Assembly (NCBI GenBank): GCA_012719125.1
Contig: JAAYAY010000013.1
Location: forward strand, 1 to 64,000
Source: Planctomycetaceae bacterium
Lineage (GTDB): Bacteria > Planctomycetota > Planctomycetia > Pirellulales > Thermoguttaceae
Reading direction: 5' to 3'
Length of the DNA stretch: 64,000 nucleotides
Of this stretch, positions 33,837 to 57,469 are shown one piece after another. The notes under the pieces were generated by a model that did no database searches, was not told the DNA's origin, and saw nothing but the letters and a program-made list of their open reading frames with translations. Numbering within the stretch: position 1 is the first letter of the stretch; each line of letters begins with the position of its first letter. The translations under genes were made by a program, and so were the position numbers.

Positions 33837-33985
33837 CAGAACTCCTTCGACGTCAGACAAGCGGGCCTCATTGTAGCGGAATGCGGAAGAAGTACGCCAC
33901 ACGTTACAATGGGGCCGGCGAATACCTGCCGCTCGGAAACTGGTACCACAAACACGAATCCCGCAAACGCATTGGAGTGTCCAAG

Positions 33986-40236: not shown

Positions 40237-40376
40237 AGTCCAACCATTGTACTCCACAGCCCGAAGGTTGCAGCGGCGCGGGGCGGATTCTAAATTGGGG
40301 TGTCTGGGCAATACCGGCTCGGCACACCGTATTGGCTTTCGGCGTTGTCGCTTCTGGTAACACGGTGAGGAAGAAC

Positions 40377-41063: not shown

Positions 41064-41158
41064 GCTTTGAGCCATGAACAGTGAGCGTTCGGCAGAGTTG
41101 CGGAATTCTCACTTTGAGCTCAACGCTTCCGTTTCTGAACCCTGTCTTGGAGAGAACC

Positions 41159-41851
41159 ATGCGAAGACGATCGATGTATAGCAGCCTGATTGCCCTGTTG
41201 GTCCTGACGGGCGCACCGCTCTCGGCGGAAGAGAAGTGCGTGGCCGATGTGAAAGAACCCGTCGAACTGTTCAACGGCAAGGACCTGAGCGGGTGGAGTT
41301 GCTTCCTCGTGGATGCAAATGCCAAGATGGAAGACGTCTGGAGCGTCAAGGACGGCATCCTGATCTGCAAGGGCGAGCCCCACGGCTACCTGGCCACGGA
41401 GAACCGGTACGAGAACTTCAAACTGATCGTGGAGTGGCGCTGGGCGCCGGGCAAAGAACCGGGCAACAGCGGTGTGCTGATGCGGATCACGGGCGAAGAG
41501 ATGATGCTGCCCAACTGCGTCGAAGCCCAATTGAAGAGCGGCGACGCCGGTGCCATGTACGGTTTCCAAGGCTTCAAGATCGACGGACCGGCCGAACGCA
41601 AGACGGAAACCAAGGGCCACAAGCTGGGCGGCGACTTGACGGGCCTGAAGAAGCTGGAGGCCGCCGAGAACACGCCTCCCGAGTGGAACCGCTACGAGAT
41701 CACGGCCAGCGGCGACAAGATCGCGGTCAAGGTGAACGGCAAGAAGGTCAATGAAGCGTTCGGCTGTGACGTGCGCTGCGGCAAGATCGCCGTCCAGTCG
41801 GAAGGCGGCGAGATTCACTTCCGCAAGATCTCGCTCCAGCCCGTCAATTGA
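41159..41851 (+). CDS. DUF1080 (3-keto-disaccharide hydrolase-like) secreted protein, tandem paralog
   Basis: RBS ggagag; signal 'MRRRSMYSSLIALLVLTGAPLSA'; 'FKLIVEWRW...SGVLMRI', 'KSGDAGAMYGFQG', 'NRYEITASGDKIAVKVNGKKVNE', 'GKIAVQSEGGEIHFRKISL'. Confidence 0.85.
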   Translation: MRRRSMYSSLIALLVLTGAPLSAEEKCVADVKEPVELFNGKDLSGWSCFLVDANAKMEDVWSVKDGILICKGEPHGYLATENRYENFKLIVEWRWAPGKEPGNSGVLMRITGEEMMLPNCVEAQLKSGDAGAMYGFQGFKIDGPAERKTETKGHKLGGDLTGLKKLEAAENTPPEWNRYEITASGDKIAVKVNGKKVNEAFGCDVRCGKIAVQSEGGEIHFRKISLQPVN

Positions 41852-42237
41852 CGCCCCGTCCTGCCTGAGTCTTCTATCCGAAACGGCCCCGGTTTCGTCC
41901 GCTCGAAGCCGGGGCCGGCTTGCATTGAGAGACGATCGCCAAGACGCGACCCATATCCCCCGAAAGAGCTAGATTTGCGATTGTGTTGCCGAAACGCAAC
42001 GCGGCAAGAATTCCCCATCTACTCTGATCGTAAAATCCTGCGCCGAAATCTCTCCGCAGCAGCCAAGAATGTCCCTTTCGGCTGATCCAATTTCGTGCGA
42101 GTTCGATTACACTCGGAACTATCGGACGCTGGATTTCGTCCTTAGGGACAGTGTAGGATTGTTATGGCTCTGCGCCAGTTGGCGGGCGATCGGTGGGTTC
42201 TGCAAGCCCGAACAGACACTCAGGTACGGCAGAAGAG

Positions 42238-45200
42238 ATGAGTACAGTCCAAGGTTTTCGTTTTCCGCAGCAGCGTACAAAGAAAGCCACGACAGCCCGG
42301 TCTTCCCGCGTCGAGGCCCTCGAACCTCGGCGGGTCCTGGCGGCGCCGACGCTGGCAGATCTCCCCAGCGAGATCAACATCTACGCGGGTGCTCCCGTCC
42401 ACCTCGCTCTGGGCGGCGCGGATGCGGACGGCGACAGTCTTACCTATACGGTTTCCAGCACGAATCCCCAGATCAGCGCATCGATCCCCAAGCAGGAGGC
42501 CCCCAACGGCAACCGGAGCATGCGGATTACGGTGCAGGGGTACGGGCAAATGGTGTTCGAATTGTTCGAAGGCCGCGCTCCCGAGACGACCTCGCGCATC
42601 ATCGAGATCGCCGAATCCGACTGGTACGACGACCGGATCTTCCACCGCGTCATCGACGGTTTCATGATTCAGGGCGGTTCCCGCGACGGGCTGGGCATCA
42701 ACGGAACGGGCACCCAGTTCGACGACGAATACGACGTGGAACTCCAGTTCACCTCCTCGGGGCTTCTGGCGATGGCCAAGGCCGGCGACGACACGAACGA
42801 TTCCCAATTCTTTATCACCGACGTGCCCTCGGGCGGCTATTCCTATCCGCGCTGGCTGGACTTCAACCACACGATCTTCGGCAAGCTGACTTCCGGCGAC
42901 AACGTTCGCGAAGCCATTTCGGCCGCCGCGACCAATTCGAGCGATCGTCCGACCACAGACATCGTCATCGAGTCGGTCGAGATCTTTCAAGACACCCAGA
43001 ATGCCGTGATGATGATTGCGGCGCCGCACGGCACCTACGACACGGGCAATATCACGGTCACCGTGAGCGACGGAAAAGGAGGTACGGCCAGCAAGACGGT
43101 CCAGGTCAACGTCCTGCCGGACGGCAACAACAACAACCCGTTCCTCGGCCCGATCGATCCCATTCGACTGGCGATCGACCAGCCTTACAGTTTCCAACTC
43201 AACGCCACGGACGTCGAAGGCGACAAGATCTACTACCAGGCCGAATTGCTCACCGACACGGACGATATCACGGTCGAGGTTTCGGAGTCCGGGCTGGTGA
43301 CGATCACGCCCAAGAACGAAGTCGTCGGCGTGGCCGAAATCGCCTTCCGCGTGGGTCCCACTGCCGCGTCGCTCGTTCCCGACGAATACGGGGACTATGA
43401 AGAGGCAACGATCGACGCGCAAATCGTGACGATTGAGATCCCCCCGGCAAAACCCGTCATCAGCTTTGCGCCCGGGGCGGACACGGGCGTTCTGGACGGC
43501 AACACCTCCAAAGACAATTCCTCGGGCAAGGAACTCTTCTTTGAGGTCAAGAACCTCCAGGCCACGTCGGAACTGGCCATCTATCTCCAGGGGGTGCAGG
43601 TGGGTTACGAGCAAATCGCCCGGATTCCCCAAGGGGACGGCACCAGCAATTTCGTGGCGACCATCCGCTTGCGATCGGAGATGGTGCTGGACGACGGGAA
43701 CTACACCCTCCACATCCAGCAACTTCTGCCGCTCGACTCGGAACTGTATGGCGACCAGAAGTTGGCAAGCGACGTGTCGGAACCTCTCGAGTTCTCCGTC
43801 GACACCGCGCCCCCCGTCATCACTTCCGAGGCGGTGGATGTCGCCTTCCAGGGAGAAGAGTACTTCTACGACGTCGACTCCGACGACGAAGGCGACGACG
43901 ACGTCTACTACGAACTGCAGATTCCGTTTCCCGCGGGGATGACCATCGATTCCGCCACCGGTGAGATCCGCTGGACTCCCGCAGCGACGGCCGGTTTCAC
44001 CGAGGAAGTCGTCGTCCGAGTGACCGACGGTGCGGGAAACAAGGGCGAGCAATCCTTCGAGATCACGGTTTACGCTCCCCTCGAGATCAGTCTCGAAGAA
44101 GGCGACACCAGCGTCGACGAACTGCAGACCGTGACCCTGATCCTCGAGGCCTCCAATCCCGCGGATTCGGCCTCGTCGCTGGTCATCACCTTGCAGGACG
44201 GGGTGTTGCCGGCCGAGGCCTATACCCTCGAACAACTGGACGGAAATCGTGCCCGCTTCACCTGGACGACCGGGGAAGCGGACGGACCCGGGGTCTACGA
44301 TCTGGTGTTCGGCGCCAACGACGGCGCCGATGCGCGCGGCAGTGAGACCATTCGAATCACGGTGAGCGAAGTCAACCAGGCACCCGAGTTCACCGAGGTC
44401 TTCGACGAGTGGACCGGGGCGGAAGAAGAACGAATCGATCTGCAATTCGTGGCGTCTGACGGCGATCTGCCCGCCAACGAATTGCTCTTCAACCTGTTTG
44501 GCGAAGTCCCCGACGGAGCGGTGATCGACGAAACCAGCGGCCTCCTCTCCTGGACCCCGGATGAGATCGACGGTGGGCGGACCTTCGAGTTCGGGGTCCG
44601 CGTGACCGATTCGGGCGGCCTGTCGGACGAACACACCATCGTCATCACCGTCGTCGAGAACCAGAAGGCGCCTGTCTTCGATCCCACGCCTCCTCAGCGA
44701 GTGACCGAAGGGGAGGTCCTTGATTTCGTCGTCGCGGCGCACGATCCCGACGTCCCCGCCCACGCCCTTGAGTATCAACTCGAAGGGGATGTGCCGGCGG
44801 GCCTTACCATCGACGCGCAAACGGGCCGCATCCGTTGGGATGTGCCGGAGGGGTATCTTCCCGGCACGACTCTGGAAGGCACTCTCGAACTGACCGTCGT
44901 CGCACGCGAAGTCGTGGCGGCCACGGAAGTTGGGCAGATCGCTCGGCAAACCGTGGAAATCACGGTGGTCGACGGCCTGGCCGATCTCGTCGCTGCCACA
45001 CTCACGCTGGCAGAGACGGCAATCTCCGATCCATTGGCCGGGCCGACAACCGTCTCGCTCACCGCGTTGACGCTCGATCGAGGATCGGAAGTACCCACGG
45101 TCTCGCAGAAGGCCGAGTTCTATGACGATCGAGGGTTCTTCGGGACCCTGTTCGGTCCGATCGGCACCGGCGGTGGAATCGAGCCTGGGACCAAGGAGAA

Positions 45201-45534
45201 GTCGGATTCCGAGGGCGAGACCGATCCCGGGGCAAACGGCGAGGGAGAACAAACCTCGGCCCTCGAACGACTGCTCGACGAGATCGCGGGCGACGTGAGC
45301 ACCAGCGTCTTCGACGCCCTCCTCTACGCCAAGACTGTTCCCGCCGACGCGCGCGAAGAACCGCCGGTTCCCGCTGACGAATCCCAGCCGGTTCCCCTGC
45401 CCACCGAGGAAGCGGCTCCTCCTGCTGAAGCCTCTGGGGCCGGGCAAACCCAGTCGGCTGCGGAGACCGAACTGGCCTCTGAGAAGCCCGAGAAGCCCGA
45501 AAAGGCTCCGCAAGGAGAGACCGTCAACTCCTAG
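42238..45534 (+). CDS. Giant secreted protein: N-terminal cyclophilin-type PPIase domain fused to multiple He_PIG/cadherin-like Ig repeats, acidic C-terminal tail
   Basis: Planctomycete-type N-terminal motif 'RVEALEPRRVLAAP'. Cyclophilin core 'MVFELFEGRAPETTSRIIEIAESDWYDDRIFHRVIDGFMIQGG...SGLLAMAKAG..NDSQFFIT...HTIFGKL'. Repeated 'PAGMTIDSATGEIRWTP', 'VIDETSGLLSWTP', 'PAGLTIDAQTGRIRWDVP' (He_PIG-like). Acidic tail rich in E/P/A. Confidence 0.8.
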   Translation: MSTVQGFRFPQQRTKKATTARSSRVEALEPRRVLAAPTLADLPSEINIYAGAPVHLALGGADADGDSLTYTVSSTNPQISASIPKQEAPNGNRSMRITVQGYGQMVFELFEGRAPETTSRIIEIAESDWYDDRIFHRVIDGFMIQGGSRDGLGINGTGTQFDDEYDVELQFTSSGLLAMAKAGDDTNDSQFFITDVPSGGYSYPRWLDFNHTIFGKLTSGDNVREAISAAATNSSDRPTTDIVIESVEIFQDTQNAVMMIAAPHGTYDTGNITVTVSDGKGGTASKTVQVNVLPDGNNNNPFLGPIDPIRLAIDQPYSFQLNATDVEGDKIYYQAELLTDTDDITVEVSESGLVTITPKNEVVGVAEIAFRVGPTAASLVPDEYGDYEEATIDAQIVTIEIPPAKPVISFAPGADTGVLDGNTSKDNSSGKELFFEVKNLQATSELAIYLQGVQVGYEQIARIPQGDGTSNFVATIRLRSEMVLDDGNYTLHIQQLLPLDSELYGDQKLASDVSEPLEFSVDTAPPVITSEAVDVAFQGEEYFYDVDSDDEGDDDVYYELQIPFPAGMTIDSATGEIRWTPAATAGFTEEVVVRVTDGAGNKGEQSFEITVYAPLEISLEEGDTSVDELQTVTLILEASNPADSASSLVITLQDGVLPAEAYTLEQLDGNRARFTWTTGEADGPGVYDLVFGANDGADARGSETIRITVSEVNQAPEFTEVFDEWTGAEEERIDLQFVASDGDLPANELLFNLFGEVPDGAVIDETSGLLSWTPDEIDGGRTFEFGVRVTDSGGLSDEHTIVITVVENQKAPVFDPTPPQRVTEGEVLDFVVAAHDPDVPAHALEYQLEGDVPAGLTIDAQTGRIRWDVPEGYLPGTTLEGTLELTVVAREVVAATEVGQIARQTVEITVVDGLADLVAATLTLAETAISDPLAGPTTVSLTALTLDRGSEVPTVSQKAEFYDDRGFFGTLFGPIGTGGGIEPGTKEKSDSEGETDPGANGEGEQTSALERLLDEIAGDVSTSVFDALLYAKTVPADAREEPPVPADESQPVPLPTEEAAPPAEASGAGQTQSAAETELASEKPEKPEKAPQGETVNS

Positions 45535-45819: not shown

Positions 45820-48800
45820 ATGACCAGACCGCTAACGTGCGCTTCAGACAGGGTAGTTGGTGTTCGTTGGTGGGCCTTGGCAGCAACAGCGTTGGCAGTT
45901 GTGCCTTGGAGTTGCCCAGGATTGCACGCTGCGGAGTATCAGCGGCCGGTCTACCCGGCCACTCAAGGCGCGTATCAGGCACAGGTCCCTGTTTCGCGAG
46001 CGGCGACGCCCGTGCAGCGGATCCCGGCCTACGCCTCGAATCCTCCTCAGGGAATGCAGCAGGCCACGTACTCAGACGCGTTGGCCGGTGGGACGGAGCC
46101 GGTCCTGCGGGCCTATTCCTGCACGCCGGCCCAGGGTGCCGTGCTCGACGCCACTCTGAACGAGCAGTTCAGAGGCCAAGGCAATGTGCGGATCGTCCTC
46201 GACCGCGGAGCCAGCCAACTTTTGGTCATGGCGCCCGAGCCGATCCAGCAACAGATCGCGGCCCAGATTCGAGCGGTGACCGCGGTCGCGGCAACGGTGC
46301 CCCAGCCCATGCCCGTGCAGCCGGTCGGCACCACTCCCATCGCGGCGCCTGCGAATGCTCAACGCCGCGAGTATCAACTCAGATATCTGACGGCAGCACG
46401 GCTGGAGGCGATTCTCCAGACCGCACTCGGGAATCGTTGGAGCCCGCTCCAGCAACCTGCCGGGGCACCGCCGGCTTATCACCTCCTGGTCGGGGGACGA
46501 CCCGATTTCACCATCTGGCTCGACCACGGTCGGAACCGATTGCTGCTCCAAGGCCCCGGGGGAAAGCCCTATGAGTCCTGTGCTCGACTGATCGAGTTGC
46601 TTGACACGCCCAACTCTTCGGACGGCTCGAGCCGCTGCCTGGTGTCGCTCACTACGGTCAGCACCGACGATCTCACTGCGGTCGTCAACGCCATTCATAC
46701 GACCAACGGTCCGGTGTCGCCCCGCAGGAGTGCGATCGGGCCCGCCAATGTCGTTCTGGCGCAGGCTACCGGACCGGCCGAGCAGCCGGCTGCTCTCGCG
46801 GCGCCGGGCGACCGCGAAGAAGTCACGGCCACCGTACCGTTTCCGGGCGGCGCCGAGCCTTCTGCCGGCACCGGGTTGATGGGGCCCGTTCAGATCGAAA
46901 TGGTCGAAGGCCTCGGTGTGCTCGTCATCAAGGGCGACAAACGCGACGTGGCCCAGGTGGTGAAACTGATCCAGGAAATCCAACAGATGAGCGATTTGAC
47001 CGAACCATCGGTCGTCGTGCACCCGCTCACTCACGTGAACTGCGAAGCGCTGGCCACTTTGGTGAGCACCCTCTACAGCGAAGTCTTCTCCACCCGGCAG
47101 GGGACGGTGAGCATCACCGCCCTGGTGAAGCCGAACGCCCTGCTGTTGATCGGACGCCCCGAGAACGTCGATACGGTCGTCAACCTGGTCAAACGCCTGG
47201 ACCGCCCGGTCCCACCGGAATCGCAGTTCAAAGTGTTTCGTCTCCGCCACGCCGCGGCGGCGACTGCCCAGGAAACGATCGAGCAGTTCTTCCAGGACAG
47301 CGAAGGGGAGCAACTGGCCGGATTGGGAACGCGGGTCCATGTGCTTGCCGATTTCCGCTCCAACTCGCTGATCGTCCGGGCGAGCCCCCGCGATATGCTC
47401 GAAGTCGAGCGCATGATCAACGAGATCGACACGCGCGACGCTACGGCCGTCAACGATCTGCGCGTCTTCAAATTGAAGAACTCCCTGGCCGAAGACCTGG
47501 AACCCATCCTGCAAAACGCCATCGCCGGGCAGCAAACGGGGCAGGCCCAACAGAACGTCGAGCAGAAATCGATCGGTCTGCGGCTAGTGACCATCGATTC
47601 GGCCGGGCAGAAACTGCTCAGTTCGGGTATCCTCACCGACGTGCGCGTGACCGCGGATCCGCGAGCCAACGCCCTGTTGATCTCGGCCCCGGCCGAAAGC
47701 ATGCCGCTGATCGAGGCCCTGATCAACCAGCTCGATCAACTGCCCGTCGCCGAAGCCCAGTTGAAGGTCTTCACGATCGTTAATGGCGATGCGGCCGCCC
47801 TGGTCGACATGCTCGAAGCCCTGTTCGGCCAGACCACCACGAACCAGAGCGAACCGCCGGTTCGCACCGGGGCTGCTGAGGGCGACAGCTCGCTCGTCTC
47901 GCTGCGATTTGCCACCGACGTCCGCACCAACAGCATCATCGCATCGGGCAGCCTGGGCGATCTGGCCGTGGTCGAGGCCATTCTGTTGCGGCTGGACGAA
48001 AGCGATGTTCGCGAGCGGAAGACCACGGTCTATCGCTTGAAGAACGCGCCGGCTCCCGACGTGGAGACCGCCATCAACGAATACCTCGATCAGGAGCAGC
48101 AGCTTCCCAACATCGGCGAAGGCCTGTTCAGCACCTTCGAGCTTCTCGATCGGGAAGTCATCGTGGTCGCCGAAACGGTCAGCAACAGCCTGATCGTCAG
48201 CGCCACGCCCAAGTACTACGACGAAATCAAATCCCTGGTCGAACAGCTCGACGAACGGCCCGGCATGGTCATGATCCAGGTGCTGATCGCCGAGGTCTAC
48301 CTCAACGACACTGAAGAGTTCGGCATCGAACTCGGCTTGCAGGACTCCGTTCTGTTCGATCGCAGCCTGCTGGGCGATATCACGACCATTAGCCGCACCA
48401 CCCAGGAGCCTGGCCTGGCGCAGGTCGTCACCCAGCAGATCGTCACTGCCACGAACGAACCGGGCTTTCTGTTCAACGACCTGACAAGTCCCCTGGGCAA
48501 CAGCGGGGCGTCGAACGCACTGGCCCAGTCTAATGTGGTCGGAGGTCAAGGCCTCTCCAACTTCGGCGTGGGGCGAATCAACAGCGAGCTCGGATTCGGC
48601 GGGCTGGTCATGTCGGCTTCGAGCGAGTCGGTGAGCGTGCTTCTGAGAGCCCTCAAGGAAGACCGGCGGATCAACATCCTCAGCCGGCCCCAGGTCATGA
48701 CCCTCGACAATCAGCCCGCCTCCATCCAGGTCGGCGAACGCGTTCCCACCATTAGCGGCAGCGAGACCAACGATGCGGGCGGGTTGACCAACCAGATCGA

Positions 48801-49602
48801 TTTCCAGGACGTCGGCCTGATTGTCGGGGTGACGCCCCGCATCAGCCCCGACGGGCTGGTGGTGATGGAGATCGACGCCGAGAAGTCGGAAGTCGGCCCC
48901 GAAGCCGAAGGCATTCCCGTTTCGGTCTCCGAAGGGGTGACCATTCGCAGCCCGCGAATCAAAACAATCACCGCCGCGACAACGGTCAGTGCGTTGGACG
49001 GGCAGACGGTGGTGCTCGGCGGTCTGATCACGTCGAACAAGACCAAGGTCGATCGGCGCGTGCCCTGGCTGTGCGAGATTCCGATCCTCGGTCAACTCTT
49101 CCGCTACCAAGGGTATACGTCCAAGAGGAGCGAACTGCTGATCATCATGACGCCGCGAATTGTGAAAAACGAGCAGGATGCCGAAATCGTCATGCAAACG
49201 GAAGCCGCTCGCATGAGTTGGTGTCTCAACGACGTGCTCGAACTTCACGAAGACGTCGCTCTCCGCCCACGCGGCGGCGAGTGGAAAGACGACGAAACGA
49301 CCACGATCTATCCCGACGGAAAGCCGACACCCGAGGAACTCGACAGCCTCGACAAGACTCCTCTCGATCCCCCCGCCTCGCCCACCGTGGCGCCTCCGGC
49401 GGATCCCTCGGCCGGCGCCCAACGCGGACGTTTCACGCCGGCAAACCGCCCCGGGACTTCCTATGTCGCCCCGGCCAACTATGAATCGAACCTGGACGCC
49501 GCGGCCCGCCCAACCGGCGGGGTTTATCCGGCCACGGGTTCCTACAGTTCCGCCGGACAAGCCTCTCCAACCGCCTCGTCCTATCCGTCAACAGGCTATT
49601 GA
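45820..49602 (+). CDS. Type II/III secretion-system secretin family protein (GspD/PilQ-like), unusually long (1,260 aa) with Pro/Ser/Tyr-rich C-terminal extension
   Basis: Signal 'WWALAATALAVVPWSCPGLHA'; repeated N-domains ('LRVFKLKNSLAEDLEPIL', 'LKVFTIVNGDAAALVDML', 'TVYRLKNAPAPDVETAI'). Secretin domain 'TTVSALDGQTVVLGGLITSNKTKVDRRVPWLCEIPILGQLFRYQGYTSKRSELLIIMTPRIV'. Confidence 0.9.
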   Translation: MTRPLTCASDRVVGVRWWALAATALAVVPWSCPGLHAAEYQRPVYPATQGAYQAQVPVSRAATPVQRIPAYASNPPQGMQQATYSDALAGGTEPVLRAYSCTPAQGAVLDATLNEQFRGQGNVRIVLDRGASQLLVMAPEPIQQQIAAQIRAVTAVAATVPQPMPVQPVGTTPIAAPANAQRREYQLRYLTAARLEAILQTALGNRWSPLQQPAGAPPAYHLLVGGRPDFTIWLDHGRNRLLLQGPGGKPYESCARLIELLDTPNSSDGSSRCLVSLTTVSTDDLTAVVNAIHTTNGPVSPRRSAIGPANVVLAQATGPAEQPAALAAPGDREEVTATVPFPGGAEPSAGTGLMGPVQIEMVEGLGVLVIKGDKRDVAQVVKLIQEIQQMSDLTEPSVVVHPLTHVNCEALATLVSTLYSEVFSTRQGTVSITALVKPNALLLIGRPENVDTVVNLVKRLDRPVPPESQFKVFRLRHAAAATAQETIEQFFQDSEGEQLAGLGTRVHVLADFRSNSLIVRASPRDMLEVERMINEIDTRDATAVNDLRVFKLKNSLAEDLEPILQNAIAGQQTGQAQQNVEQKSIGLRLVTIDSAGQKLLSSGILTDVRVTADPRANALLISAPAESMPLIEALINQLDQLPVAEAQLKVFTIVNGDAAALVDMLEALFGQTTTNQSEPPVRTGAAEGDSSLVSLRFATDVRTNSIIASGSLGDLAVVEAILLRLDESDVRERKTTVYRLKNAPAPDVETAINEYLDQEQQLPNIGEGLFSTFELLDREVIVVAETVSNSLIVSATPKYYDEIKSLVEQLDERPGMVMIQVLIAEVYLNDTEEFGIELGLQDSVLFDRSLLGDITTISRTTQEPGLAQVVTQQIVTATNEPGFLFNDLTSPLGNSGASNALAQSNVVGGQGLSNFGVGRINSELGFGGLVMSASSESVSVLLRALKEDRRINILSRPQVMTLDNQPASIQVGERVPTISGSETNDAGGLTNQIDFQDVGLIVGVTPRISPDGLVVMEIDAEKSEVGPEAEGIPVSVSEGVTIRSPRIKTITAATTVSALDGQTVVLGGLITSNKTKVDRRVPWLCEIPILGQLFRYQGYTSKRSELLIIMTPRIVKNEQDAEIVMQTEAARMSWCLNDVLELHEDVALRPRGGEWKDDETTTIYPDGKPTPEELDSLDKTPLDPPASPTVAPPADPSAGAQRGRFTPANRPGTSYVAPANYESNLDAAARPTGGVYPATGSYSSAGQASPTASSYPSTGY

Positions 49603-49631
49603 TGCACTTTCGCTGCAAGGATATCGTTCCA

Positions 49632-50585
49632 ATGACACTCCGGATTCGTGAAACGGCGGTCCGCTCTTGGTGCGTGCTTCTGGTGGTCACGGCCTGTCTG
49701 GCAAGCGGCTGTGCCCAATGGGACTTGAAGAAGTCCTGGACGCCCTCCCTGTTCGGTGACGGCAACGACAAGCCTCAGATACCTAACCGGGTCGTTGCCG
49801 TGTGGGTCGACACGATCCGCTACACCCAGGGCCAACCTCCCACGCGAGGATTCGGCGGTCGCTTGATGTTCTACCAGAAGGACGAAGAGAAGCCGGTCAA
49901 GGTCGAAGGCGAACTGGTGGTCTACGCCTTTGACGAAGAAGATCGGAAGCCCACCGATCCGCGCCCGACACGCAAGTATGTCTTCCCGGCCGACCAAATC
50001 GACGCGTACTACAGCGAGTCGAAGATCGGGCACTCCTACAGCTTCTTTGTGCCCTGGGACGAAGTGGGCGGATATCGCAAGAACATCAGTCTGATTGCTC
50101 GCTTCCAGCCGAAACTGGGACCGGTCGTTGTCGGCGAGCAGACCCACCACATCCTGCCCGGCAAACCGTTGCCGGAGGATCTGCAGAACGCGAGTGCGGA
50201 AACAGACTACGCAGGCTCGGTACGGGCAGCCTCATTCAGTTCGCCCACGCCGGAGGAAAAGCCATACGACCCGAACCGCGCGCGAATGAAATCGACCACC
50301 ATCCCGCTGTCGCCCTCGTTCGGCCGGCAGACGCCTAAGGCCGAGGTCCGGCGCCGCTCGGTGGGCTCGCAGACTAGGGCGTCGGTTCCAGCAACGCAGG
50401 CGCTTCCTGAGAATCCGGACTCGCCGCAACCTTCAACTGATTCTCAACTTTCCAGATCCCGGCCTCAAGCATCGCCAATCGTTCGGCGAGAAGGCGATCG
50501 TGCTCTGTCGACACCACGCCTCGCAGCGTGGCGGTCCCCTGGTCGACCGACACTTCCAAAGGCGTCCGGTTCTGAATCCAAGTAG
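49632..50585 (+). CDS. Lipoprotein of unknown function immediately downstream of the secretin (pilotin-like position), low-complexity C-terminus
   Basis: Lipobox 'LLVVTACLASGCAQ'; starts about 30 nt after the secretin stop. Conserved-looking core 'VVAVWVDTIRYTQG...RLMFYQKDEEKPVKVEGELVVYAFDE'; the C-terminal S/P/R-rich tail overlaps a convergent gene. Confidence 0.6.
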   Translation: MTLRIRETAVRSWCVLLVVTACLASGCAQWDLKKSWTPSLFGDGNDKPQIPNRVVAVWVDTIRYTQGQPPTRGFGGRLMFYQKDEEKPVKVEGELVVYAFDEEDRKPTDPRPTRKYVFPADQIDAYYSESKIGHSYSFFVPWDEVGGYRKNISLIARFQPKLGPVVVGEQTHHILPGKPLPEDLQNASAETDYAGSVRAASFSSPTPEEKPYDPNRARMKSTTIPLSPSFGRQTPKAEVRRRSVGSQTRASVPATQALPENPDSPQPSTDSQLSRSRPQASPIVRREGDRALSTPRLAAWRSPGRPTLPKASGSESK

Positions 50586-51072
50586 AGTTCGTCATCCGTT
50601 CGGCAAGCCGCGAGGCAACCGCAGACGGCGCCCGTGACGGCGCAATCGTGCTGGGCTTGGGCGGAGTGAAGCCGAGTTGCAGGACAACGCGAACCTCGTC
50701 CCGCTGTCGCCCGCGTCCGCCGCTCCGATTGACGTTGGCGCTGCTCGCGCCGCCACCCCGGCGGATATTGCGACTGCGAGAACTCTGGTTTCCTCCGTCG
50801 GCGGAAGCGGCGCCGACAAAACCCGCGTCCGCCGAATCGGCCCCCACGAAGGCGTTTTGGCGGTTGTCGCGCATGAACCGCGCATTCGTGTCGACCTGAC
50901 CCGCGCTGCCGACGCCAAAGCTGCCCGCGCTGCCCTGACCGCCTGTCTGGCCACTGACCTGGAACCCGGCCTGATTGCTTCGCGCGCCGCCCGCTCGCTG
51001 CTGGGCAAACGACTCCTGCCCCACAAAACCGGCGACTGATACAACGGCTGCAATGATCAGATAGCGACGCAT
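50374..51072 (-). CDS. Secreted BON-domain protein with Gly/Ser/Ala-rich linker
   Basis: Signal 'MRRYLIIAAVVSVAGFVGQESFA'; C-terminal BON domain 'LEVSVDQGTATLRGVVSTEHDRLLAERLAMLEAGIWKVENQLKV'. Confidence 0.65.
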   Translation of the reverse strand: MRRYLIIAAVVSVAGFVGQESFAQQRAGGARSNQAGFQVSGQTGGQGSAGSFGVGSAGQVDTNARFMRDNRQNAFVGADSADAGFVGAASADGGNQSSRSRNIRRGGGASSANVNRSGGRGRQRDEVRVVLQLGFTPPKPSTIAPSRAPSAVASRLAERMTNSTWIQNRTPLEVSVDQGTATLRGVVSTEHDRLLAERLAMLEAGIWKVENQLKVAASPDSQEAPALLEPTP

Positions 51073-51394
51073 CGGATTCTCCCCTCGGAAACTCATCCTT
51101 CGGAAAGGCGGTGATCCTTACCTACATCGTACACCTCGGCCAGCAAAGCACAATATGCACCCGGGCTTCAGCACAACGGGAGCGACCGACGAACCTTGCC
51201 GAACCTACCACCGATGGGTGTCAACGATCGTAACGGCCATGCAGATGGTCGGGGTAATCCGTGCCATGGCGAAGGTGACGCCTTTCCGGTCGGCACCGTC
51301 GTCAAACCCCGCATATTCCTACGTAGCCGAGTCTCTCCAAGACTCAACACCGATCCGATCGCGAAGTCTCGCCACGCTTTTTCGGGGGCCAACG

Positions 51395-52753
51395 TCACAT
51401 GGCCCTCGTCGACGGGTAGATCGGAATCGAACCGCCGGTCAGGGGGGAGAAAACCGGGACTCGCACGGATCGGTCGACCGGCGGCAAGGGCGCGAACCCG
51501 GGCGGCGCAGAAGACGCCATAGAACGGCGATTCTGCCCGGAGTAGCCGGTGGAGACGGAACTGCGGCCATAGCCGTCGTCTGATCGGGAGTAGCCCCAGC
51601 TCTCCGTCGACCGGGGTTCATTCTCAACCGGCACAAGTCCCAGATTGCTGCTGGCGGGAACGGCGCCGGCGGAGGCTGCTGCCGAGTCCTCATACGAGGG
51701 GGGACTGTACGCGTAAGGGCCCGACGGCAGCGCGGTAACGGATTCGCCGCCCGGCCAGGTGCTGGAATCGTCGGCAGCAGCCTCCTGCCGTTCGCCGTAG
51801 CGAGTGGGAGAACGGTCGTTGTCGAACGATGAGTCGTTCCCGTAGGAATCACTCAGAGAGTTGTCCCGAGAGTTGTTGTTGCCGTAGGTGTTTTCGTCGG
51901 TGTTGCTATAGGTGTTGCCGTAGCTGTCGGAACTGTCGCCATAGGACGAGTCATCCCGGTGGGAGTAGCTGTCGTCGGCATAGGAATTCGTTCCATACGG
52001 ATCGTATTCTGAATCCCCGTTCGACTCGTCCCTGCTCGAGTCGTTCCAGGAATAGTCGTTTCCCGTCTCTGTGTCGTCCCCGGCCAGAGTCGCCCGCGAT
52101 TTCCCGCTGCTCCCCCCCGAACCATAAGTGTCGGACTTGGCTCGGCTCTTGTTGCGACGATTGCGTTTGGCACTTGCAGAATCGTCCTGGTTGGACGAAT
52201 CCTTGCTCCCGTAGCCGTCGTACCCGTCCTTGGAGGACGTGGAATCCTCGTCGCAGTAACCATAGGAATCGCCGCGGCTGTCCGAAGCGTCTTCGTCCGA
52301 GCTGTCTTCTTCCTCGTGGCTCTTTCCAGACGAGTAGCGATTACTCGCGTAGCTGGAGCCGTATAACGAAGAGTACTTGCTTGACGACTCCTCTTCATTC
52401 AACTCGTCCGATTCTTCTTCCTCTTCTTCCCCGTAGGAACGATGCGAACCGTAGGAATACGAACTGTATTCGGATTTTCCCTCCGAATCGTCGTTCCCGT
52501 AGCTCGACCAACTGGAGCGGCAGCCGGACGACGATACCTCCGCGGCTTCATCGGTGTCGGCCCCGTAACGGCCCCCTGCCTTGTCCGAATCTGTCGCATC
52601 GCCGGTCGATTCGGCACAAACCACCACCCGCGTCGAAGAAGACGCTTCCGGGACTGCAGCCATCTCGAGGACCACGGGGAATCGGGCCGTATTGAACCCG
52701 ATACACGTGGCCACGAGCATCACGACGGCGATGGCGGCAGGGATTCTTGGCAT
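51395..52753 (-). CDS. Secreted, strongly acidic Ser/Asp/Tyr/Gly-rich low-complexity protein (452 aa)
   Basis: Signal/TM 'MPRIPAAIAVVMLVATCIGF'; then near-continuous S/D/Y/G/E/N repeats ('SEYSSYSYGSHRSYGEEEEEESDELNEEESSSKYSSLYGSSYASNRYSSGKS', 'DSSYGDSSDSYGNTYSNTDENTYGNNNSRDNSLSDSYGNDSSFDND'). Uninterrupted 1.36-kb ORF despite lower local GC. Confidence 0.55.
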   Translation of the reverse strand: MPRIPAAIAVVMLVATCIGFNTARFPVVLEMAAVPEASSSTRVVVCAESTGDATDSDKAGGRYGADTDEAAEVSSSGCRSSWSSYGNDDSEGKSEYSSYSYGSHRSYGEEEEEESDELNEEESSSKYSSLYGSSYASNRYSSGKSHEEEDSSDEDASDSRGDSYGYCDEDSTSSKDGYDGYGSKDSSNQDDSASAKRNRRNKSRAKSDTYGSGGSSGKSRATLAGDDTETGNDYSWNDSSRDESNGDSEYDPYGTNSYADDSYSHRDDSSYGDSSDSYGNTYSNTDENTYGNNNSRDNSLSDSYGNDSSFDNDRSPTRYGERQEAAADDSSTWPGGESVTALPSGPYAYSPPSYEDSAAASAGAVPASSNLGLVPVENEPRSTESWGYSRSDDGYGRSSVSTGYSGQNRRSMASSAPPGFAPLPPVDRSVRVPVFSPLTGGSIPIYPSTRAM

Positions 52754-53183
52754 GGTCTTGTTTTCTCGTTTCCGTCGCTCCAAGCGACCGAGAAAACATA
52801 CACGCCGAGCCGAGCGCTGCAAGCGCGGAACAGACCAAATCGCAGGGTTTTTCTCCGCCCTGGCACGGCACGAGTCGGTTAGCGAAACCTTGCCGTTTTT
52901 CGGCGGAGGTTCACATCGAAAGCACCAGGAATTCGGGCAAGGCAAGAGAGAGAAGAGACGTAATCACGGCACTGTGAACCGATGAATCCGTACGGTAAGG
53001 CTGTAGCAGATGGGCGCTCTCCGGGGTAGGACTCTGCCGAGTTTGTGGGTGGGACCGTCGCGGCGGTTCTCTCGGATATCTACGTAGCCTTGATCTCCTC
53101 CGGGCTCGTTCCGATGGACAGCGTCACCTCGCCCCATTCCTCGGGCGCAAGGCGTTCCACAAGAACGGACCAGATCAGATCGT

Positions 53184-55700
53184 TCACTCCTTCAGTTCCA
53201 CTACATCTTTCCCCTGGGAACGCACGCCGATGATGCGGCGGCCGTCGACAATCACCTGGTACGTCACGCCGTTTTCGCCCTCGATGATGGCCTGGTCGCC
53301 CTGAAGGGTGACGGGAAACGGTGCTGCCACCCGGTGCGTCTTGTCGGCCGCCACCGAAATCGCGTCGAGTTTGCCCTCCAGCACGAGGCGCAAGCTGACC
53401 AGCGCGCAGGGATTGATCGTCCAGGGACGACGTTCCTGGGTCTCCAGCGCCAACGCGTCCGGAAGAAGGCCCGCGTAGTCGCCGTCGGGATACTGCATCT
53501 GCTCGCCCGCAATCAGAATCCCCCAGGCGAGGTGTTTCCAGTCGAGCGTGTCGTCGTAGGGTGCCAGCTTCGTGAGGGCATAGGCATACACTAGTCCGAC
53601 CCATTGGACCGGGAGTCCGAACCAGACGGGGGCTCGCCAGTTGGTCGCTCCCAGAACGGGAACCGTCCCGTAGACCATGATCGGTTGATTGCCCCACTGG
53701 TAGACGAACGGTACTCCGGAAATCGCCCACCGGCGCGCCTCGTCGAGATAGCTCTTGTCGCCCGTCAGTTCATAGCCTCGCACGTAGGCCCAGACGAGAT
53801 AGGCCGACGCCAGTTGGTCGGGAGTGTGCAAGGGAATCTCCCAAACTTGGGCGCCGCGAGGCGTGCGGAACCGCTTCATGTACTCCAACGTGCGGACACC
53901 AGCCTCCAGGGCGCGGGGGTCCGCCGTAATCCAGGCGTATTCCAGCAGGCCGGCCGCCGGCCTGGCGCAAACGCCGCTTGCCGTGTCTTCGTGGTGGCCC
54001 TGGGCGAACTTGCCCTGATAGCGAAAAGAACCGTCCTCCTGCTGCTGTTTCAGCAATCCGTCGATCTGCGCAAGCTGCTTCTCCTTCCATTCGAAGGCCT
54101 GATTGGTCAGGAAGAAAATCGATTCGTTGGCGATATGGGCGCCGCGCATCGTGAAGTCGCGCCGTCTGGGCACCTGGCCCGTGAGTCGGAAAAGCGTGGA
54201 AACCATGTCGGCGAAGTACTGCCTCGGCCAGCGGTCTTCGACGCAATGGCCCCATCCCTCGGTGGATCGCAGGGGACCATTGAGCGCTTGCAGGCAGAGT
54301 CGGTACTGGGCCTCGGAGCTGCGTGGGGCGTCTGGTAAGGGAGGAAGCCCGCGGCGCTTCACCGCCCAAACGATCTGATCCTCCAGAGAGCCGCCGGCCA
54401 CTCGCAGGACCGCCTTGATCGTGGAACCCTGCAAGGCCATGCGGTGATCGTCGGCCGCGTCGAAGAAATTGGGTGTGGCAAAGATCGGTTGCAGGCCCAT
54501 GTCGTCCCAGGTCAGCGAGACCGACGCTCGGTCGGTGACAAACGACATGAGCGGCATGGTCACGTCGAGCGGCTTGGGGGCGAAGCGGAGGTGGGCTTCT
54601 GTTTCCACGTCGAGCTTGGTGGAACTGTGTTCTCCCTTTCCGAGGTGTTCCAGGCCGGCGAGCAGGCCCTGCTCCAGGCCGCCCAAGACTCGGACCACCG
54701 GGCCTTCACACACGCTCTCGCTCTCGATGACGATATGAATCTCGTTGCCGGCGGTCGAAAGCGTCAACGCAACTCCCTCACCGCGAAACTGAAGGGATTG
54801 AGGCGTGGACGTCAAGTTGAACGACGGGATCCGGTAATCGCAGTGAACCAGCGGCGCCAACAGGGCGACCACCTGGTCGTTCCGAAAAACGCGAGCCGCC
54901 TTGCCGTCCGGAGCGACCTGCAGCTTTCCGCCCTCCAAGGGCATGTCCAGCCACTGGACCGGCGCCTCCGGATGCACGACGAAAAGCGAGCGGCTCACGT
55001 CGGGCAGACCCTCGGCCTGAAGGTCGATCCGAATCGGTTCGATGAGTTGCTTGGCGTCGGTGCCGATCGCGATCACCTTCTCGGTCCCGGGCTGCAGCAA
55101 GAGTACCTGCCCGGCGGCGGTGAACTGTCTCGGTGAGGTCCCATGATTCTTGATCGTGAATTCCGCCCCCGCCTCCGTTAACGCGATACGATCAATCGAC
55201 AACGGGTGCTCGCCCAGGTGGACGAGGCGAATCCAGTCGATCTCGATTTCCCCGGCGCCGTCGGCCGGATCAAGCCGGATGTCGGTCAAATGCCCGGGAG
55301 CGTGGAAGTCGACCTTGTATTCGTGCCACTCATTGTCGGGAATCACTTCGAGGGAACGCGCCTTGTCGTCGCCCCGGCGCGGCGACTCCCGGGTGATCCA
55401 ATAGACCTGGGCAGGCCCTGGAGCCGTGCCGCGGGCGCGGTACTCGAGAGCCATCTGCCCCCCGGAAGTGTCAACGCGGGCGTGCATGTAGGGATCCTTG
55501 CCGGTTGTGTGGACGAGCAGATTGCCGTCGCGGGTCGTCAGCTCGCAACGAGCTTCCGCAAACCAGCCCTTCGTCCCCTCGGAGAAGTCCCACTCCGCCA
55601 CCACTTCGCGGAGTGTTGGACGTGGCATCGGATTGATCTGAGGCAACGGTTCGTCGAACCCCGGCAAGCAGAGCAGACAGATAATGGCGGCGTGGTGCAT
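53184..55700 (-). CDS. Large secreted hypothetical protein (839 aa), possible glycan-active alpha/alpha-toroid-like C-terminal region
   Basis: RBS ggagg before 'MHHAAIICLLCLPGFDEP'; no named motif recognised. C-terminal third is W/Y-rich ('YLVWAYVRGYELTGDKSYLDEARRWAISGVPFVYQWGNQ'). The function is inference only. Confidence 0.55.
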   Translation of the reverse strand: MHHAAIICLLCLPGFDEPLPQINPMPRPTLREVVAEWDFSEGTKGWFAEARCELTTRDGNLLVHTTGKDPYMHARVDTSGGQMALEYRARGTAPGPAQVYWITRESPRRGDDKARSLEVIPDNEWHEYKVDFHAPGHLTDIRLDPADGAGEIEIDWIRLVHLGEHPLSIDRIALTEAGAEFTIKNHGTSPRQFTAAGQVLLLQPGTEKVIAIGTDAKQLIEPIRIDLQAEGLPDVSRSLFVVHPEAPVQWLDMPLEGGKLQVAPDGKAARVFRNDQVVALLAPLVHCDYRIPSFNLTSTPQSLQFRGEGVALTLSTAGNEIHIVIESESVCEGPVVRVLGGLEQGLLAGLEHLGKGEHSSTKLDVETEAHLRFAPKPLDVTMPLMSFVTDRASVSLTWDDMGLQPIFATPNFFDAADDHRMALQGSTIKAVLRVAGGSLEDQIVWAVKRRGLPPLPDAPRSSEAQYRLCLQALNGPLRSTEGWGHCVEDRWPRQYFADMVSTLFRLTGQVPRRRDFTMRGAHIANESIFFLTNQAFEWKEKQLAQIDGLLKQQQEDGSFRYQGKFAQGHHEDTASGVCARPAAGLLEYAWITADPRALEAGVRTLEYMKRFRTPRGAQVWEIPLHTPDQLASAYLVWAYVRGYELTGDKSYLDEARRWAISGVPFVYQWGNQPIMVYGTVPVLGATNWRAPVWFGLPVQWVGLVYAYALTKLAPYDDTLDWKHLAWGILIAGEQMQYPDGDYAGLLPDALALETQERRPWTINPCALVSLRLVLEGKLDAISVAADKTHRVAAPFPVTLQGDQAIIEGENGVTYQVIVDGRRIIGVRSQGKDVVELKE

Positions 55701-56146
55701 CGGTTCCTCCAGACATCCCTGTTGGGCAGTCGGCCGCCCGCCACAGAGCCCGACGCGGACGGCGAAAACGCCAGTGTAGCAGATCCCCCGGCAAGCCGCG
55801 CACCGGCCGACGGGCTCTCGAAGAGAATCTGCGGGCTGACGGGCCCAGCGTTGGGCTGATGGACGGACTCCATGCGTCCCAAGGGCCCTGGCTGACCCAC
55901 TGGACGCCGAAATTCTGTCTCGCCTTGTGGCGAACGCGGTGAGCCAATTACGATAGGAGATATCACCGGCCATCCATCGGCGATTGGAGTCGGATCGTCT
56001 GTCTTGTGCTTGCCCTACTCCGTCTGGGTTCCAGCTTCTCGTTCGATCGGGGGGCAAAAACCGCCGGAGCCCCCAACCCCACTGGTTGGGCGGATTGGGT
56101 GGCCGGAGGCGGGAATCGGAACCTCGCAACCCCTCGGAGTGCGGCA

Positions 56147-57469
56147 ATGCCCCGACGCAATCTACGCGTTCTCGTCCTGGCGTTGCTGGTGTGCCTCCTC
56201 TGCGCGCCACGCGTCTCCCGATCCGGTCGCGTCCTCTGGTTTGCCATGCGCCACATCGAGGCCCACTACCTCACCTCCGTCGACGAAGAAAAACTGTTTC
56301 AAGGGGCCATGGACGGGATGACGAAGGCATTGGGCGACCCCTATTCAGCCTATATTCCCCCCGAAGTTCTCCCCGAATTCAATGAGCAAATCGATCGCCA
56401 GTTCGGCGGGCTGGGAATCGAGATCCGGATCGACCACGATACCAAGTACCTTACCGTCGCCAGCCCACTCGTTGGCACGCCGGCAGCCGAGGCCGGTCTG
56501 CTTGCCGGCGATCGAATCCTGCGAATCGATGATGAAAGCACTCAAGGCCTTTCCATCGAGGACGCCGCCAAACTGCTTCGCGGCCTGCCCGGGGAACCGG
56601 TGACGCTGACCATCTCGAGGAAGGGTGCGAAAGAGACTCGCCAGGTTGAGGTCGTTCGTGCCGAGATTCAGGTCGGTACGGTGTTGGGAGACACGCGCGA
56701 TGCGGACGGCTCCTGGAACTACTACCTCGACGGGTATCCCGGAATCGGATACCTGCGACTCGATTCTTTCGGCGAGAACACCGGGGCGCAGATGCGCGAG
56801 GTGATCGCCGATCTGAAGAAACAGGGCCTGAAAGGTCTGATTCTGGACATGCGGGGCAACCCGGGCGGCCTGCTGCCCGCGGCAATCGACGTCTGCGACC
56901 TGTTCGTTTCTCCCGACGATCCCCCCTCGACCGGGCCCGGCGGTGAACACATTTCGTCCGGCCTGATCCTCACGACACGCGATCGCCGGGGACAGGTGAT
57001 CCAGGAATTCTACGCCCATGACGACGGAACCGTGAACGGCTTTCCCATGGCCGTGCTTGTCAACGGGGAGAGTGCCTCGGCCGCCGAGATCGTGGCCGCT
57101 TGCCTTCAGGATCACGGCAAGGCGATCGTCGTGGGGGAACGCTCGTTCGGAAAGGGCACCGTCCAGGAGATTCTCGACTTTCACCCGGACCAGGGGCTCC
57201 TCAAGCTGACCATGGCCAGTTATTGGCGTCCCAGCGGACGGAACATCAACCGCAGCGAAGGCGCGCAGGAATGGGGCGTATCGCCTAATGCCGGTTTTGC
57301 GGTCGCCCTCAACGATGAGGAACGGGTCAATCTTGCCGTCGCGCGGCGGATGCGCGACGTAGCCGAGTCCTACACCGACGAAGAACTGGCCGCAGAAGAA
57401 GTCCCCGAGTTCAACGATCGCCAGCGCAATGCGGCCGTCGAGTGGATCGAGGATCAGATCTCGAACTGA
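56147..57469 (+). CDS. Carboxyl-terminal processing protease (S41 family, CtpA/Prc-like) with PDZ domain
   Basis: Signal 'LVLALLVCLLCAPRVS'; PDZ 'LAGDRILRIDDESTQGLSIEDAAKLLRGLPGEPVTLTI'; S41 'GLILDMRGNPGGLL', catalytic Ser 'VLVNGESASAAEIVAACLQDHGKAIVVGERSFGKGTVQ'. Confidence 0.9.
   Translation: MPRRNLRVLVLALLVCLLCAPRVSRSGRVLWFAMRHIEAHYLTSVDEEKLFQGAMDGMTKALGDPYSAYIPPEVLPEFNEQIDRQFGGLGIEIRIDHDTKYLTVASPLVGTPAAEAGLLAGDRILRIDDESTQGLSIEDAAKLLRGLPGEPVTLTISRKGAKETRQVEVVRAEIQVGTVLGDTRDADGSWNYYLDGYPGIGYLRLDSFGENTGAQMREVIADLKKQGLKGLILDMRGNPGGLLPAAIDVCDLFVSPDDPPSTGPGGEHISSGLILTTRDRRGQVIQEFYAHDDGTVNGFPMAVLVNGESASAAEIVAACLQDHGKAIVVGERSFGKGTVQEILDFHPDQGLLKLTMASYWRPSGRNINRSEGAQEWGVSPNAGFAVALNDEERVNLAVARRMRDVAESYTDEELAAEEVPEFNDRQRNAAVEWIEDQISN

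Follow-up and report, generated by a model that had tools for sequence, protein, structure and literature searches.

Positions 1 to 64,000 of contig JAAYAY010000013.1, from the Planctomycetaceae bacterium assembly GCA_012719125.1, carry on the minus strand a gene at 51395-52753 that encodes a 452-residue protein rich in Ser, Asp, Tyr and Gly. We refer to the whole 64,000-nucleotide stretch as the window and to this product as the window protein. An earlier reading, made from the letters of the sequence alone, had picked it out as an extreme low-complexity acidic secreted protein. A profile search shows it to be a member of a previously undescribed, Pirellulales-restricted family, which we name the 'IGFN-anchor / IPIYP-tail' family. 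The family architecture comprises a nearly invariant 33-residue N-terminus, a hypervariable disordered linker and four short C-terminal motifs ([KR]Y[AG], LVPV, RRLPPVD and G[ST]IPIYP[ST]TG). Compared across the family, the acidic S/D/Y/G tract is the variable linker, expanded and recomposed in the clade of the window protein. The finding is more structured than the sequence-only reading saw and less exotic in function: a clade-specific extreme linker in a conserved, undescribed family of membrane proteins. We favour, with moderate confidence, a role as an inner-membrane-anchored, periplasm-facing single-pass tether that carries docking peptides, rather than as a secreted matrix protein.

The family emerged from searches of increasing reach. 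A word-indexed search returned 13 relatives. When these are aligned, residues 1-34 (MPRIPAAIAVVMLVATCIGFNTARFPVVLEMAAV) hardly vary, the middle part is hypervariable with its composition kept, and conserved motifs stand in the C-terminal third. A profile search of 1.84 billion representative proteins gave 156 representatives at 50% identity (E <= 1e-3), many of them through bipartite matches to profile positions 1-40 and 412-449, and a second, word-indexed profile search gave 180 clusters at 90% identity. All family representatives come from Pirellulales/Thermoguttaceae-type metagenome-assembled genomes (MAGs) and metagenomes, and the named members, from Pirellulales, Thermoguttaceae, 'Planctomycetaceae' or Planctomycetota MAGs, are all called 'hypothetical protein'. 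Neither the window protein nor 83 family members matched a profile from Pfam, NCBIfam or PDB sequences, an Rfam scan of the region gave no match, and a literature search by motif strings and on Thermoguttaceae disorder and secretin topics returned nothing relevant.

Across the 83-sequence alignment, the consensus runs MPRIAAAxAV...[C/S]IGFNTxRYPVVWEM, linker, LVPV, [VI]RRLPPVD, G[ST]IPIYP[ST]TGIE. Residues G19, N21, V28, L423, P424, P444 and Y446 are invariant, and P2, I18, F20, R24 (94%), P26 and M31 are at least 90% conserved. With the N-terminal signature written as MPRIxAAxAV..[C/S]IGFNTxR[Y/F]PxV[W/L]EM, the window protein (MPRIPAAIAVVMLVATCIGFNTARFPVVLEM) fits the pattern MPR-x(13)-[CS]IGFN-x2-R[YF]P-x-V-x-[ED]M. 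It has the N-terminal module, the C-terminal motifs and the disordered linker of variable length by which we define the family. Its last ~120 residues are S/P/G/A/V-rich and bear the conserved motifs, of which LGLVPV (371-376), PLPPVD (422-427) and GSIPIYPST (441-449) fall within the last ~85 residues. The parts of the gene, with coordinates in the window and amino acid (aa) positions in the protein, are as follows.

52655..52753, minus strand: N-terminal module, aa 1-33, made up of MPR, a predicted transmembrane helix (aa 4-23) and a predicted juxtamembrane helix (aa 26-32).
51806..52648, minus strand: acidic linker of low complexity (aa 36-316) that is predicted to be disordered and contains recurrent [S/D]YG micro-motifs.
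51755..51805, minus strand: conserved motif TRYGERQEAAADDSSTW, aa 317-333, by alignment the counterpart of the [KR]Y[AG] motif (..AAKKYASS..) of other members.
51668..51721, minus strand: clade-conserved motif GPYAYxxxSYEDSAAASA, aa 345-362, from the alignment of relatives.
51626..51643, minus strand: LGLVPV, aa 371-376, the family-wide LVPV motif (L in 72, V in 72, P in 77 and V in 67 of the 83 sequences).
51473..51493, minus strand: APLPPVD, aa 421-427, the family-wide [VI]RRLPPVD motif, with L423 and P424 invariant, P425 in 72/83, V426 in 62/83 and D427 in 59/83.
51407..51436, minus strand: GGSIPIYPST, aa 440-449, the family-wide C-terminal G[ST]IPIYP[ST]TG motif, with P444 and Y446 invariant, P447 in 82/83 and T449 in 80/83.

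The open reading frame (ORF) starts with ATG at 52753 and ends with a stop at 51395-51397, giving 452 codons plus the stop. Comparative evidence marks it as a real and conserved gene, because its homologues (22-76% identity) have intact ORFs that differ by in-frame indels only, its GC content at third codon positions (GC3) is typical, and a promoter-like element precedes it at every locus examined. The earlier reading had named a lack of compositional homologues and interruption of the ORF in close relatives as grounds for its own refutation; such homologues exist, and in relatives of 40-76% identity the ORF is intact. A longer ORF from a TTG at 52945 (516 aa) is rejected, since all homologues begin at MPRI, and the DNA upstream shows the conservation of a non-coding region, with indels that break the frame. 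On the opposite strand, a Cys/Arg-rich ORF of 288 aa (51829-52695, plus strand) is best explained as a mirror artefact produced by the low-complexity coding sequence; the minus-strand frame is favoured because of its conservation and its ratio of nonsynonymous to synonymous substitution (dN/dS), which is below 1.

Codon-level comparisons with four relatives, all with intact ORFs and in-frame indels, gave dN/dS values of 0-0.15 for the N-terminal 35 codons, 0.35-0.54 for the acidic linker and 0.28-0.56 for the C-terminal part. By this measure, purifying selection on the N-terminal 33 residues is very strong. Synonymous divergence (dS) of the N-terminal codons was 0.04-0.57 across the four relatives. 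It was lower in the first 35 codons than in the rest of the gene (0.04 vs 0.39 in L015, 0.43 vs 1.55 in L016), and ~150 nucleotides (nt) 5' of the gene are also conserved, even between loci with differing upstream genes. This combination of low dS and a conserved upstream region suggests constraint on the 5' end of the gene at the nucleotide or mRNA level, besides the constraint on the protein.

The N-terminal hydrophobic anchor noted earlier is present: AlphaFold2 predicts a helix at aa 4-23, and the N-terminal 33 residues contain a 17-residue uncharged run, a length it has in 81/83 sequences. A rule-based test on the 83-sequence alignment found no conserved AxA cleavage site or lipobox in the N-terminal 33 residues. 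Positions 30-31 are Glu-Met (Met31 in 79/83), poor -3/-1 residues for signal peptidase. A lipoprotein is rejected, as Cys17 is not invariant (51 of the 83 sequences have Cys there, 31 have Ser and one has Ala); the residue at -1 to Cys17 in the window protein is Thr. The N-terminal flank of the helix carries a charge of +2 in 79/83 sequences, and the C-terminal flank, taken as the 15 residues after the helix, carries 0 in 48/83. An N-terminus of MPR and then a hydrophobic run is typical of a Sec signal-anchor. Given the uncharged run, the lack of a conserved cleavage site or lipobox, the flank charges and the strongest conservation anywhere in the protein, we consider a retained type II signal-anchor (N-in, C-out) more likely than a cleaved signal or a lipoprotein. 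Eleven members have a paired-Cys C-x4-C mini-motif in the linker, a weak hint of an oxidising compartment.

Structure prediction is consistent with this layout. With the 83-sequence alignment, AlphaFold2 placed helices at aa 4-23 and 26-32 with a predicted local distance difference test score (pLDDT) of 87-92, and a coil at aa 411-445 with pLDDT 70-83 that spans the RLPPVD to IPIYP motifs. A run with 13 sequences was concordant. Across the two runs, pLDDT fell below 50 for 311-395 of the 452 residues, covering aa 38-410 apart from short stretches, which bears out the earlier proposal of intrinsic disorder. On these models, the window protein is predicted to combine an anchor, intrinsic disorder and short linear motifs.

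The linker stands out sharply in composition. We took as background the 35 other likely genes of the window, totalling 16,907 residues. The window protein is 21.2% Ser, 10.2% Asp, 9.5% Gly, 7.3% Glu, 7.3% Tyr and 5.1% Asn, with 79 Asp and Glu vs 37 Lys and Arg. Relative to background, Ser is enriched 3.5-fold (binomial p = 4e-27), Tyr 3.0-fold (4e-8) and Asp 1.7-fold (2.5e-4), and Leu, Ile and Val are 2- to 4-fold depleted. S, D, Y, G, E and N together account for 61% of the whole protein and 73% of residues 36-330, compared with 32.5% of the background and 42% of the next most biased protein. Entropy is below 3.2 bits in 49% of the protein's 40-aa windows. The linker itself (aa 36-316) is 25% Ser, 14% Asp, 10% Gly, 9% Glu, 9% Tyr and 7% Asn, with a net charge of -40 over 281 residues. 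The strong bias claimed at the outset thus holds, although over ~280-295 residues (aa 36-316/330) rather than the more than 400 first suggested.

The short irregular repeats described in the earlier reading are also real. YG dipeptides number 14 where composition predicts 2.5 (5.6-fold; 0/2000 shuffles reach 14), and [S/D]YG triplets occur 7 times against 1.0 expected (7-fold over shuffles). DS is mildly enriched (17 vs 10.4 expected), SD is not (7 vs 10.4 expected), and an EEEEEE run occupies aa 109-114. Tandem Repeats Finder detected only four tiny arrays in the DNA; on this count, a recent tandem-repeat origin of the tract is rejected. The lower GC content reported for the underlying DNA is real and small: 0.56-0.58 locally and 0.606 in the gene, against 0.619 in the window, whose genes are of planctomycete type. 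The dip is a by-product of Ser/Asp/Tyr/Asn codons, because it sits in the first codon position (GC1 0.53) while GC3 is a typical 0.72 (neighbouring genes 0.66-0.85). With GC3 typical, a foreign or low-GC island is rejected.

To place this linker within the family, we compared 97 complete family members with the window clade. Family linkers are mostly Pro/Ala-rich and near neutral, with Pro reaching 26%, and they range from 54 to 437 aa, a 7-fold spread, with freely variable sequence. Family medians and window-clade ranges are as follows.

Protein length: family median 229 aa; window clade 408-497 aa.
Linker length: family median 152 aa; window clade 340-440 aa.
Linker Pro: family ~12%; window clade ~3-4%.
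Linker Tyr: family ~1%; window clade 7-11%.
Linker Ser: family ~11%; window clade 23-25%.
Linker net charge: family -6; window clade -26 to -66.

These contrasts in length, Tyr content and charge identify the acidic state as derived. At least six further N-terminal sequence clusters also contain Tyr-rich acidic linkers, beside relatives without such linkers; P0033 and P0048, for example, have one and P0022 does not. The micro-motif differs by lineage, being YG in the window clade, SY in P0033 and P0048, and YS in P0096. Because each Tyr-rich lineage has its own micro-motif, we suggest that these linkers expanded repeatedly and independently, a provisional view as the clustering comes from only 34 residues. 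Linker length also varies by repeat copy number. P0012 (vs L003 10001-11413), a more distant allele that matches P0009, carries an extra 18-aa repeat in frame and then, from about residue 185 onward, a +1 frameshift; it may be a pseudogene or an assembly error.

These observations are suggestive of a mechanism in which the N-terminal module acts as an uncleaved signal-anchor, N-in and C-out, whose three cytoplasmic residues (MPR) and helix of ~17-20 residues would hold the protein in the inner membrane. Because it is so conserved, the module probably also contacts a conserved integral-membrane partner. The disordered linker would be a flexible spacer projecting into the periplasm, which in planctomycetes is atypical and enlarged, and the proline-rich C-terminal motifs, in extended form, would bind a partner in the periplasm, the peptidoglycan or the outer membrane. 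The resulting architecture would be a TonB/TolA/FtsN-like tether without a folded C-terminal domain. In the window clade, the spacer would form a polyanionic, Tyr-studded brush able to bind divalent cations and to swell the spacer.

Several points weigh against such a tether. The idea is drawn by analogy from architecture, with no homology to any characterised tether, and no conserved neighbouring gene indicates a partner. Arg24, on the far side of the helix, is itself conserved, which weakens the charge-difference argument for N-in/C-out. The dN/dS of the linker is equally compatible with weak constraint on composition alone.

The conservation of Arg24 just after the helix leaves the positive-inside signal ambiguous, and only three residues precede the helix. 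Both features would suit the reverse topology (N-out, C-in), with the protein a membrane-tethered cytoplasmic scaffold whose acidic linker and C-terminal motifs recruit cytoplasmic partners, much as in ZipA, where an anchor and a disordered linker also lead to a C-terminal binding element. We consider this unlikely given the difference between the flanks (+2 before the helix, ~0 after it), the Sec signal-anchor form of the N-terminus and the hint of an oxidising compartment from the C-x4-C motif. A divergent TonB-type energy transducer, its helix coupled to an ExbB/ExbD-like motor and its linker spanning the periplasm to outer-membrane transporters, would account for the N-terminal anchor and for the Pro-rich spacer of many members (KPAPKPPAPK in P0205, for instance, which one automatic JGI annotation calls 'TonB' without Pfam support). 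The strong conservation of the helix recalls the TonB transmembrane helix, which contacts ExbB/ExbD. Yet neither TonB_C (PF03544) nor any other Pfam domain was found in 83+5 members, P0205 included, even at E <= 0.1-1; the 83-sequence alignment has no His-containing SHLS-type helix motif; and the C-terminus consists of peptide motifs, not a fold. There is likewise no exbB or exbD beside the gene in the window or at most loci, a MotA_ExbB gene ~7 kb from the family gene occurring in L004 only. A TonB-type role therefore seems quite improbable. A more modest alternative is that the acidic tract has no function of its own and arose by slippage-driven, nearly neutral expansion of a linker that needs only disorder and hydrophilicity. 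The linker has dN/dS values among the highest in the gene, its length varies 7-fold across the family, P0009 and P0012 differ in repeat copy number, and each Tyr-rich lineage has a different micro-motif, all of which neutral expansion would explain. Against this stand the tiny size of the tandem repeats left in the DNA, a dN/dS that stays below 1, the recurrence of Tyr-rich acidic linkers in separate clusters, and a composition (S 23-28%, D 13-17%, Y 9-12%) kept in relatives of only 40-50% identity. We regard neutral expansion as having some chance of being right, though not a large one; the find would then be merely a new hypothetical-protein family with a noisy linker.

The sequence-only reading had gone furthest in casting the protein as a matrix, holdfast or mineral-binding component and as a plausible cargo of the adjacent secretin. 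In this scenario a Sec-exported protein would lose its signal and be released through the secretin as an extracellular Ca2+- or mineral-binding matrix or holdfast component. The highly acidic, Ser/Asp/Tyr-rich composition speaks for it, as does the 1260-aa secretin (45820-49602, plus strand) ~1.8 kb from the gene, an arrangement kept in the closest relatives. However, the gene and a BON-domain gene (50374-51096, minus strand) are convergent with the secretin operon, the gene has its own conserved promoter-like element, and no ATPase, platform or pseudopilin gene (GspE/F/G-type) of a type II secretion system (T2SS) or type IV pilus occurs in the whole 64 kb. The earlier reading had proposed looking for compositional relatives beside secretins; among the loci compared, a secretin is adjacent only in the window, L001, L002 and L016. 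The order S41 peptidase, 837-aa protein, family gene, BON gene, secretin is confined to the close relatives L001, L002, L015 and L016. In L003, L004, L006, L012, L018 and L019 the gene instead follows CsrA-ferrochelatase(-Band_7)(-aldo/keto reductase), with no secretin, and L014 has yet another context, again without one. Secretin linkage is not conserved across the family. Because the linkage is restricted to close relatives and the gene has its own upstream element, the cargo idea lacks comparative support, and the comparison indicates that the window protein is not a substrate of its neighbouring secretin. The supposed signal is moreover the most conserved part of the protein and lacks a conserved cleavage site, consistent with a retained anchor. 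T2SS substrates are folded, whereas the window protein is predicted to be disordered: its AlphaFold2 models contain no globular domain and it has no Pfam domain, so the folded domain of a T2SS substrate is missing. Finally, the linkers of most members are short, near-neutral and Pro/Ala-rich, and would not bind minerals. We judge release as a secreted matrix to be highly improbable; calcium or mineral binding by the acidic tract is a physicochemical possibility.

The sequence upstream of the gene contains two further conserved elements.

52785..52823, minus strand: promoter-like element CTTGCAG-N16-CGTGTATGTTTTCTCGGTCG, beginning 70 nt upstream of the ATG.
52847..52900, minus strand: upstream non-coding block AAAACGGCAAGGTTTCGCTAACCGA..GTGCC..GAGAAAAAC, conserved in the window, L001, L002, L003, L006 and L008 despite different upstream genes.

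The first has the consensus CTTGC[AG]G-N16-CGTGTATGTTT..CTCGGTYG, ~70 nt before the ATG. It occurs at -70 to -74 (-177 in L004/L005) in the window and 12/12 Thermoguttaceae-type loci, with looser versions in L012, L018 and L019. We infer from its conservation that it is a promoter; a simple sigma-70 scan did not score it. No Rfam family matched the second block, which may bind a regulator or be an UP-like region. An operon of the gene with the downstream BON gene is doubtful, since the gap between them is 298-409 nt with its own conserved block and no BON neighbour occurs outside the clade.

That block, non-coding and ~130 nt long (51111-51242, minus strand), has an invariant core, GGTGTACGATGTAGGTAAGGA; its conservation ahead of the BON gene covers the window, L015, L001, L002 and L016/L017. 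It gave no Rfam match and no covariation support in RNAalifold (covariation term +0.88), and could be a promoter, a leader or an unknown RNA. The BON-domain protein has a signal-peptide-like N-terminus and a G/S/Q/N-rich low-complexity region. Alignment suggests that its true start is the ATG at 51072 (MRRYLII), not 51096, and its 3' end overlaps the convergent ORF 49599-50585 by ~210 nt, with a similar overlap called in L001. The latter ORF (plus strand) encodes a 328-aa lipoprotein-like protein and is translationally coupled to the secretin gene through an ATGA overlap at 49599-49602. With no other secretion-system gene in the window, the two form an 'orphan' secretin pair. The secretin has five Secretin_N repeats and scores 347.5 bits, just under the GspD equivalog cut-off of 351.35. 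Immediately upstream of it, and syntenic in L001, L002 and L016, is a block at 40332-45534 in which two tandem 3-keto-disaccharide hydrolase genes (40332-41851, plus strand) are followed by a gene (42193-45534, plus strand) for a 1113-aa protein with a cyclophilin-type peptidyl-prolyl isomerase domain and He_PIG/Big_9/cadherin-like Ig repeats.

On its other side, the family gene in the window is directly preceded by a gene at 53184-56210 (minus strand; up to 1008 aa), whose position is conserved in L001, L002, L015 and L016. Its product and the 814-aa product of 33881-36325 (plus strand) have weak, sub-threshold matches to the GH127 beta-L-arabinofuranosidase catalytic domain. In L012 (8544-9062), L013 (1835-2353) and L014 (8531-9040), all minus strand, a gene for a ~170-aa membrane protein lies convergent with and directly 3' of the family gene. 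The L012/L013 and L014 copies are ~62% identical, and the L014 copy has a weak bPH_2 match. An ORF of 170 aa at the same place in L018 (8591-9103, minus strand) is grouped with them by position and length. The window and the Thermoguttaceae loci gave no homologue of this membrane protein, which may represent a conserved neighbour from the ancestral arrangement of the locus.

Planctomycetes, to our knowledge, are without many canonical envelope and division proteins, and we know of no function for most of their conserved envelope proteins. What began as a compositional oddity becomes a testable membrane protein, present family-wide in single copy, whose transmembrane module hardly varies and which bears a few conserved, putative docking peptides; module and peptides could both serve as handles toward finding an envelope machine. 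The recurrence of Tyr-rich acidic linkers within one family also offers a natural comparison for asking whether linker composition, besides length, is under extracytoplasmic selection. A bolder proposal, which we think improbable, is that these repeatedly evolved, Tyr-studded polyanionic linkers, held at the inner membrane by their anchors, act as stickers and spacers and form a periplasmic gel, condensate or matrix responsive to divalent cations (Ca2+, Mg2+ or metals). If so, such a matrix would be what FUS-type low-complexity domains or acidic biomineralisation proteins are in eukaryotes, but outside the cytoplasm of a bacterium, and the invariant transmembrane module would tie it to a conserved membrane machine.

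Several known systems resemble the window protein in composition or neighbourhood. Like dentin phosphophoryn, with its DSS repeats, it is strongly disordered and mildly enriched in DS, a compositional resemblance that involves no homology and does not imply phosphorylation. Like the [G/S]Y[G/S] domains of FUS-type proteins it is enriched in YG and [S/D]YG, although the FUS domain is near neutral and the window linker has a net charge of -40. Most members of its own family lack a phosphophoryn- or FUS-like composition. The staphylococcal Sdr/Clf surface proteins likewise have an acidic, disordered stalk, long and rich in Ser and Asp, that separates an anchor from a functional end. They differ in their regular SD repeats, LPXTG sortase signal and folded ligand-binding domains; in the window protein SD is not enriched, LPXTG is absent and the anchor is N-terminal, and the organism is diderm. 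The Ca2+-binding repeats of RTX proteins (GGxGxD, PF00353) gave no Pfam match in the window protein. With GspC it shares an N-terminal anchor and, in the window clade, a secretin neighbour. Unlike GspC/PilP connectors and T2SS substrates, it has no folded HR or PDZ domain, no conserved secretin linkage and no other T2SS gene nearby. By their defining features, then, it is not a T2SS substrate, a lipoprotein, an Sdr/Clf or RTX protein, or a TonB_C-bearing TonB, and no sequence similarity between it and a solved structure was found.

The closest parallels are architectural. ZipA has an N-terminal anchor, a charged P/Q-rich linker and a C-terminal FtsZ-binding domain, and the family likewise runs from an anchor through a disordered linker to a C-terminal binding element. 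Unlike ZipA, which is N-out/C-in with a folded C-terminal domain, the family has a charge bias favouring N-in/C-out and no predicted fold. TonB, with TolA and FtsN in the same architectural class, ends in a TonB_C, TolA_C or SPOR domain that the family lacks, its C-terminal element being short peptide motifs, and neither exbBD nor tolQR is linked to the family gene. Most family members have a Pro-rich spacer (median 12%, up to 26%), as in TonB; that of the window protein is acidic and Ser/Asp/Tyr/Gly-rich with ~3% Pro. What the family would share with TonB is the overall plan: a cytoplasmic N-terminus of only a few residues, one conserved transmembrane anchor, a long non-globular spacer and a conserved C-terminal interaction element.

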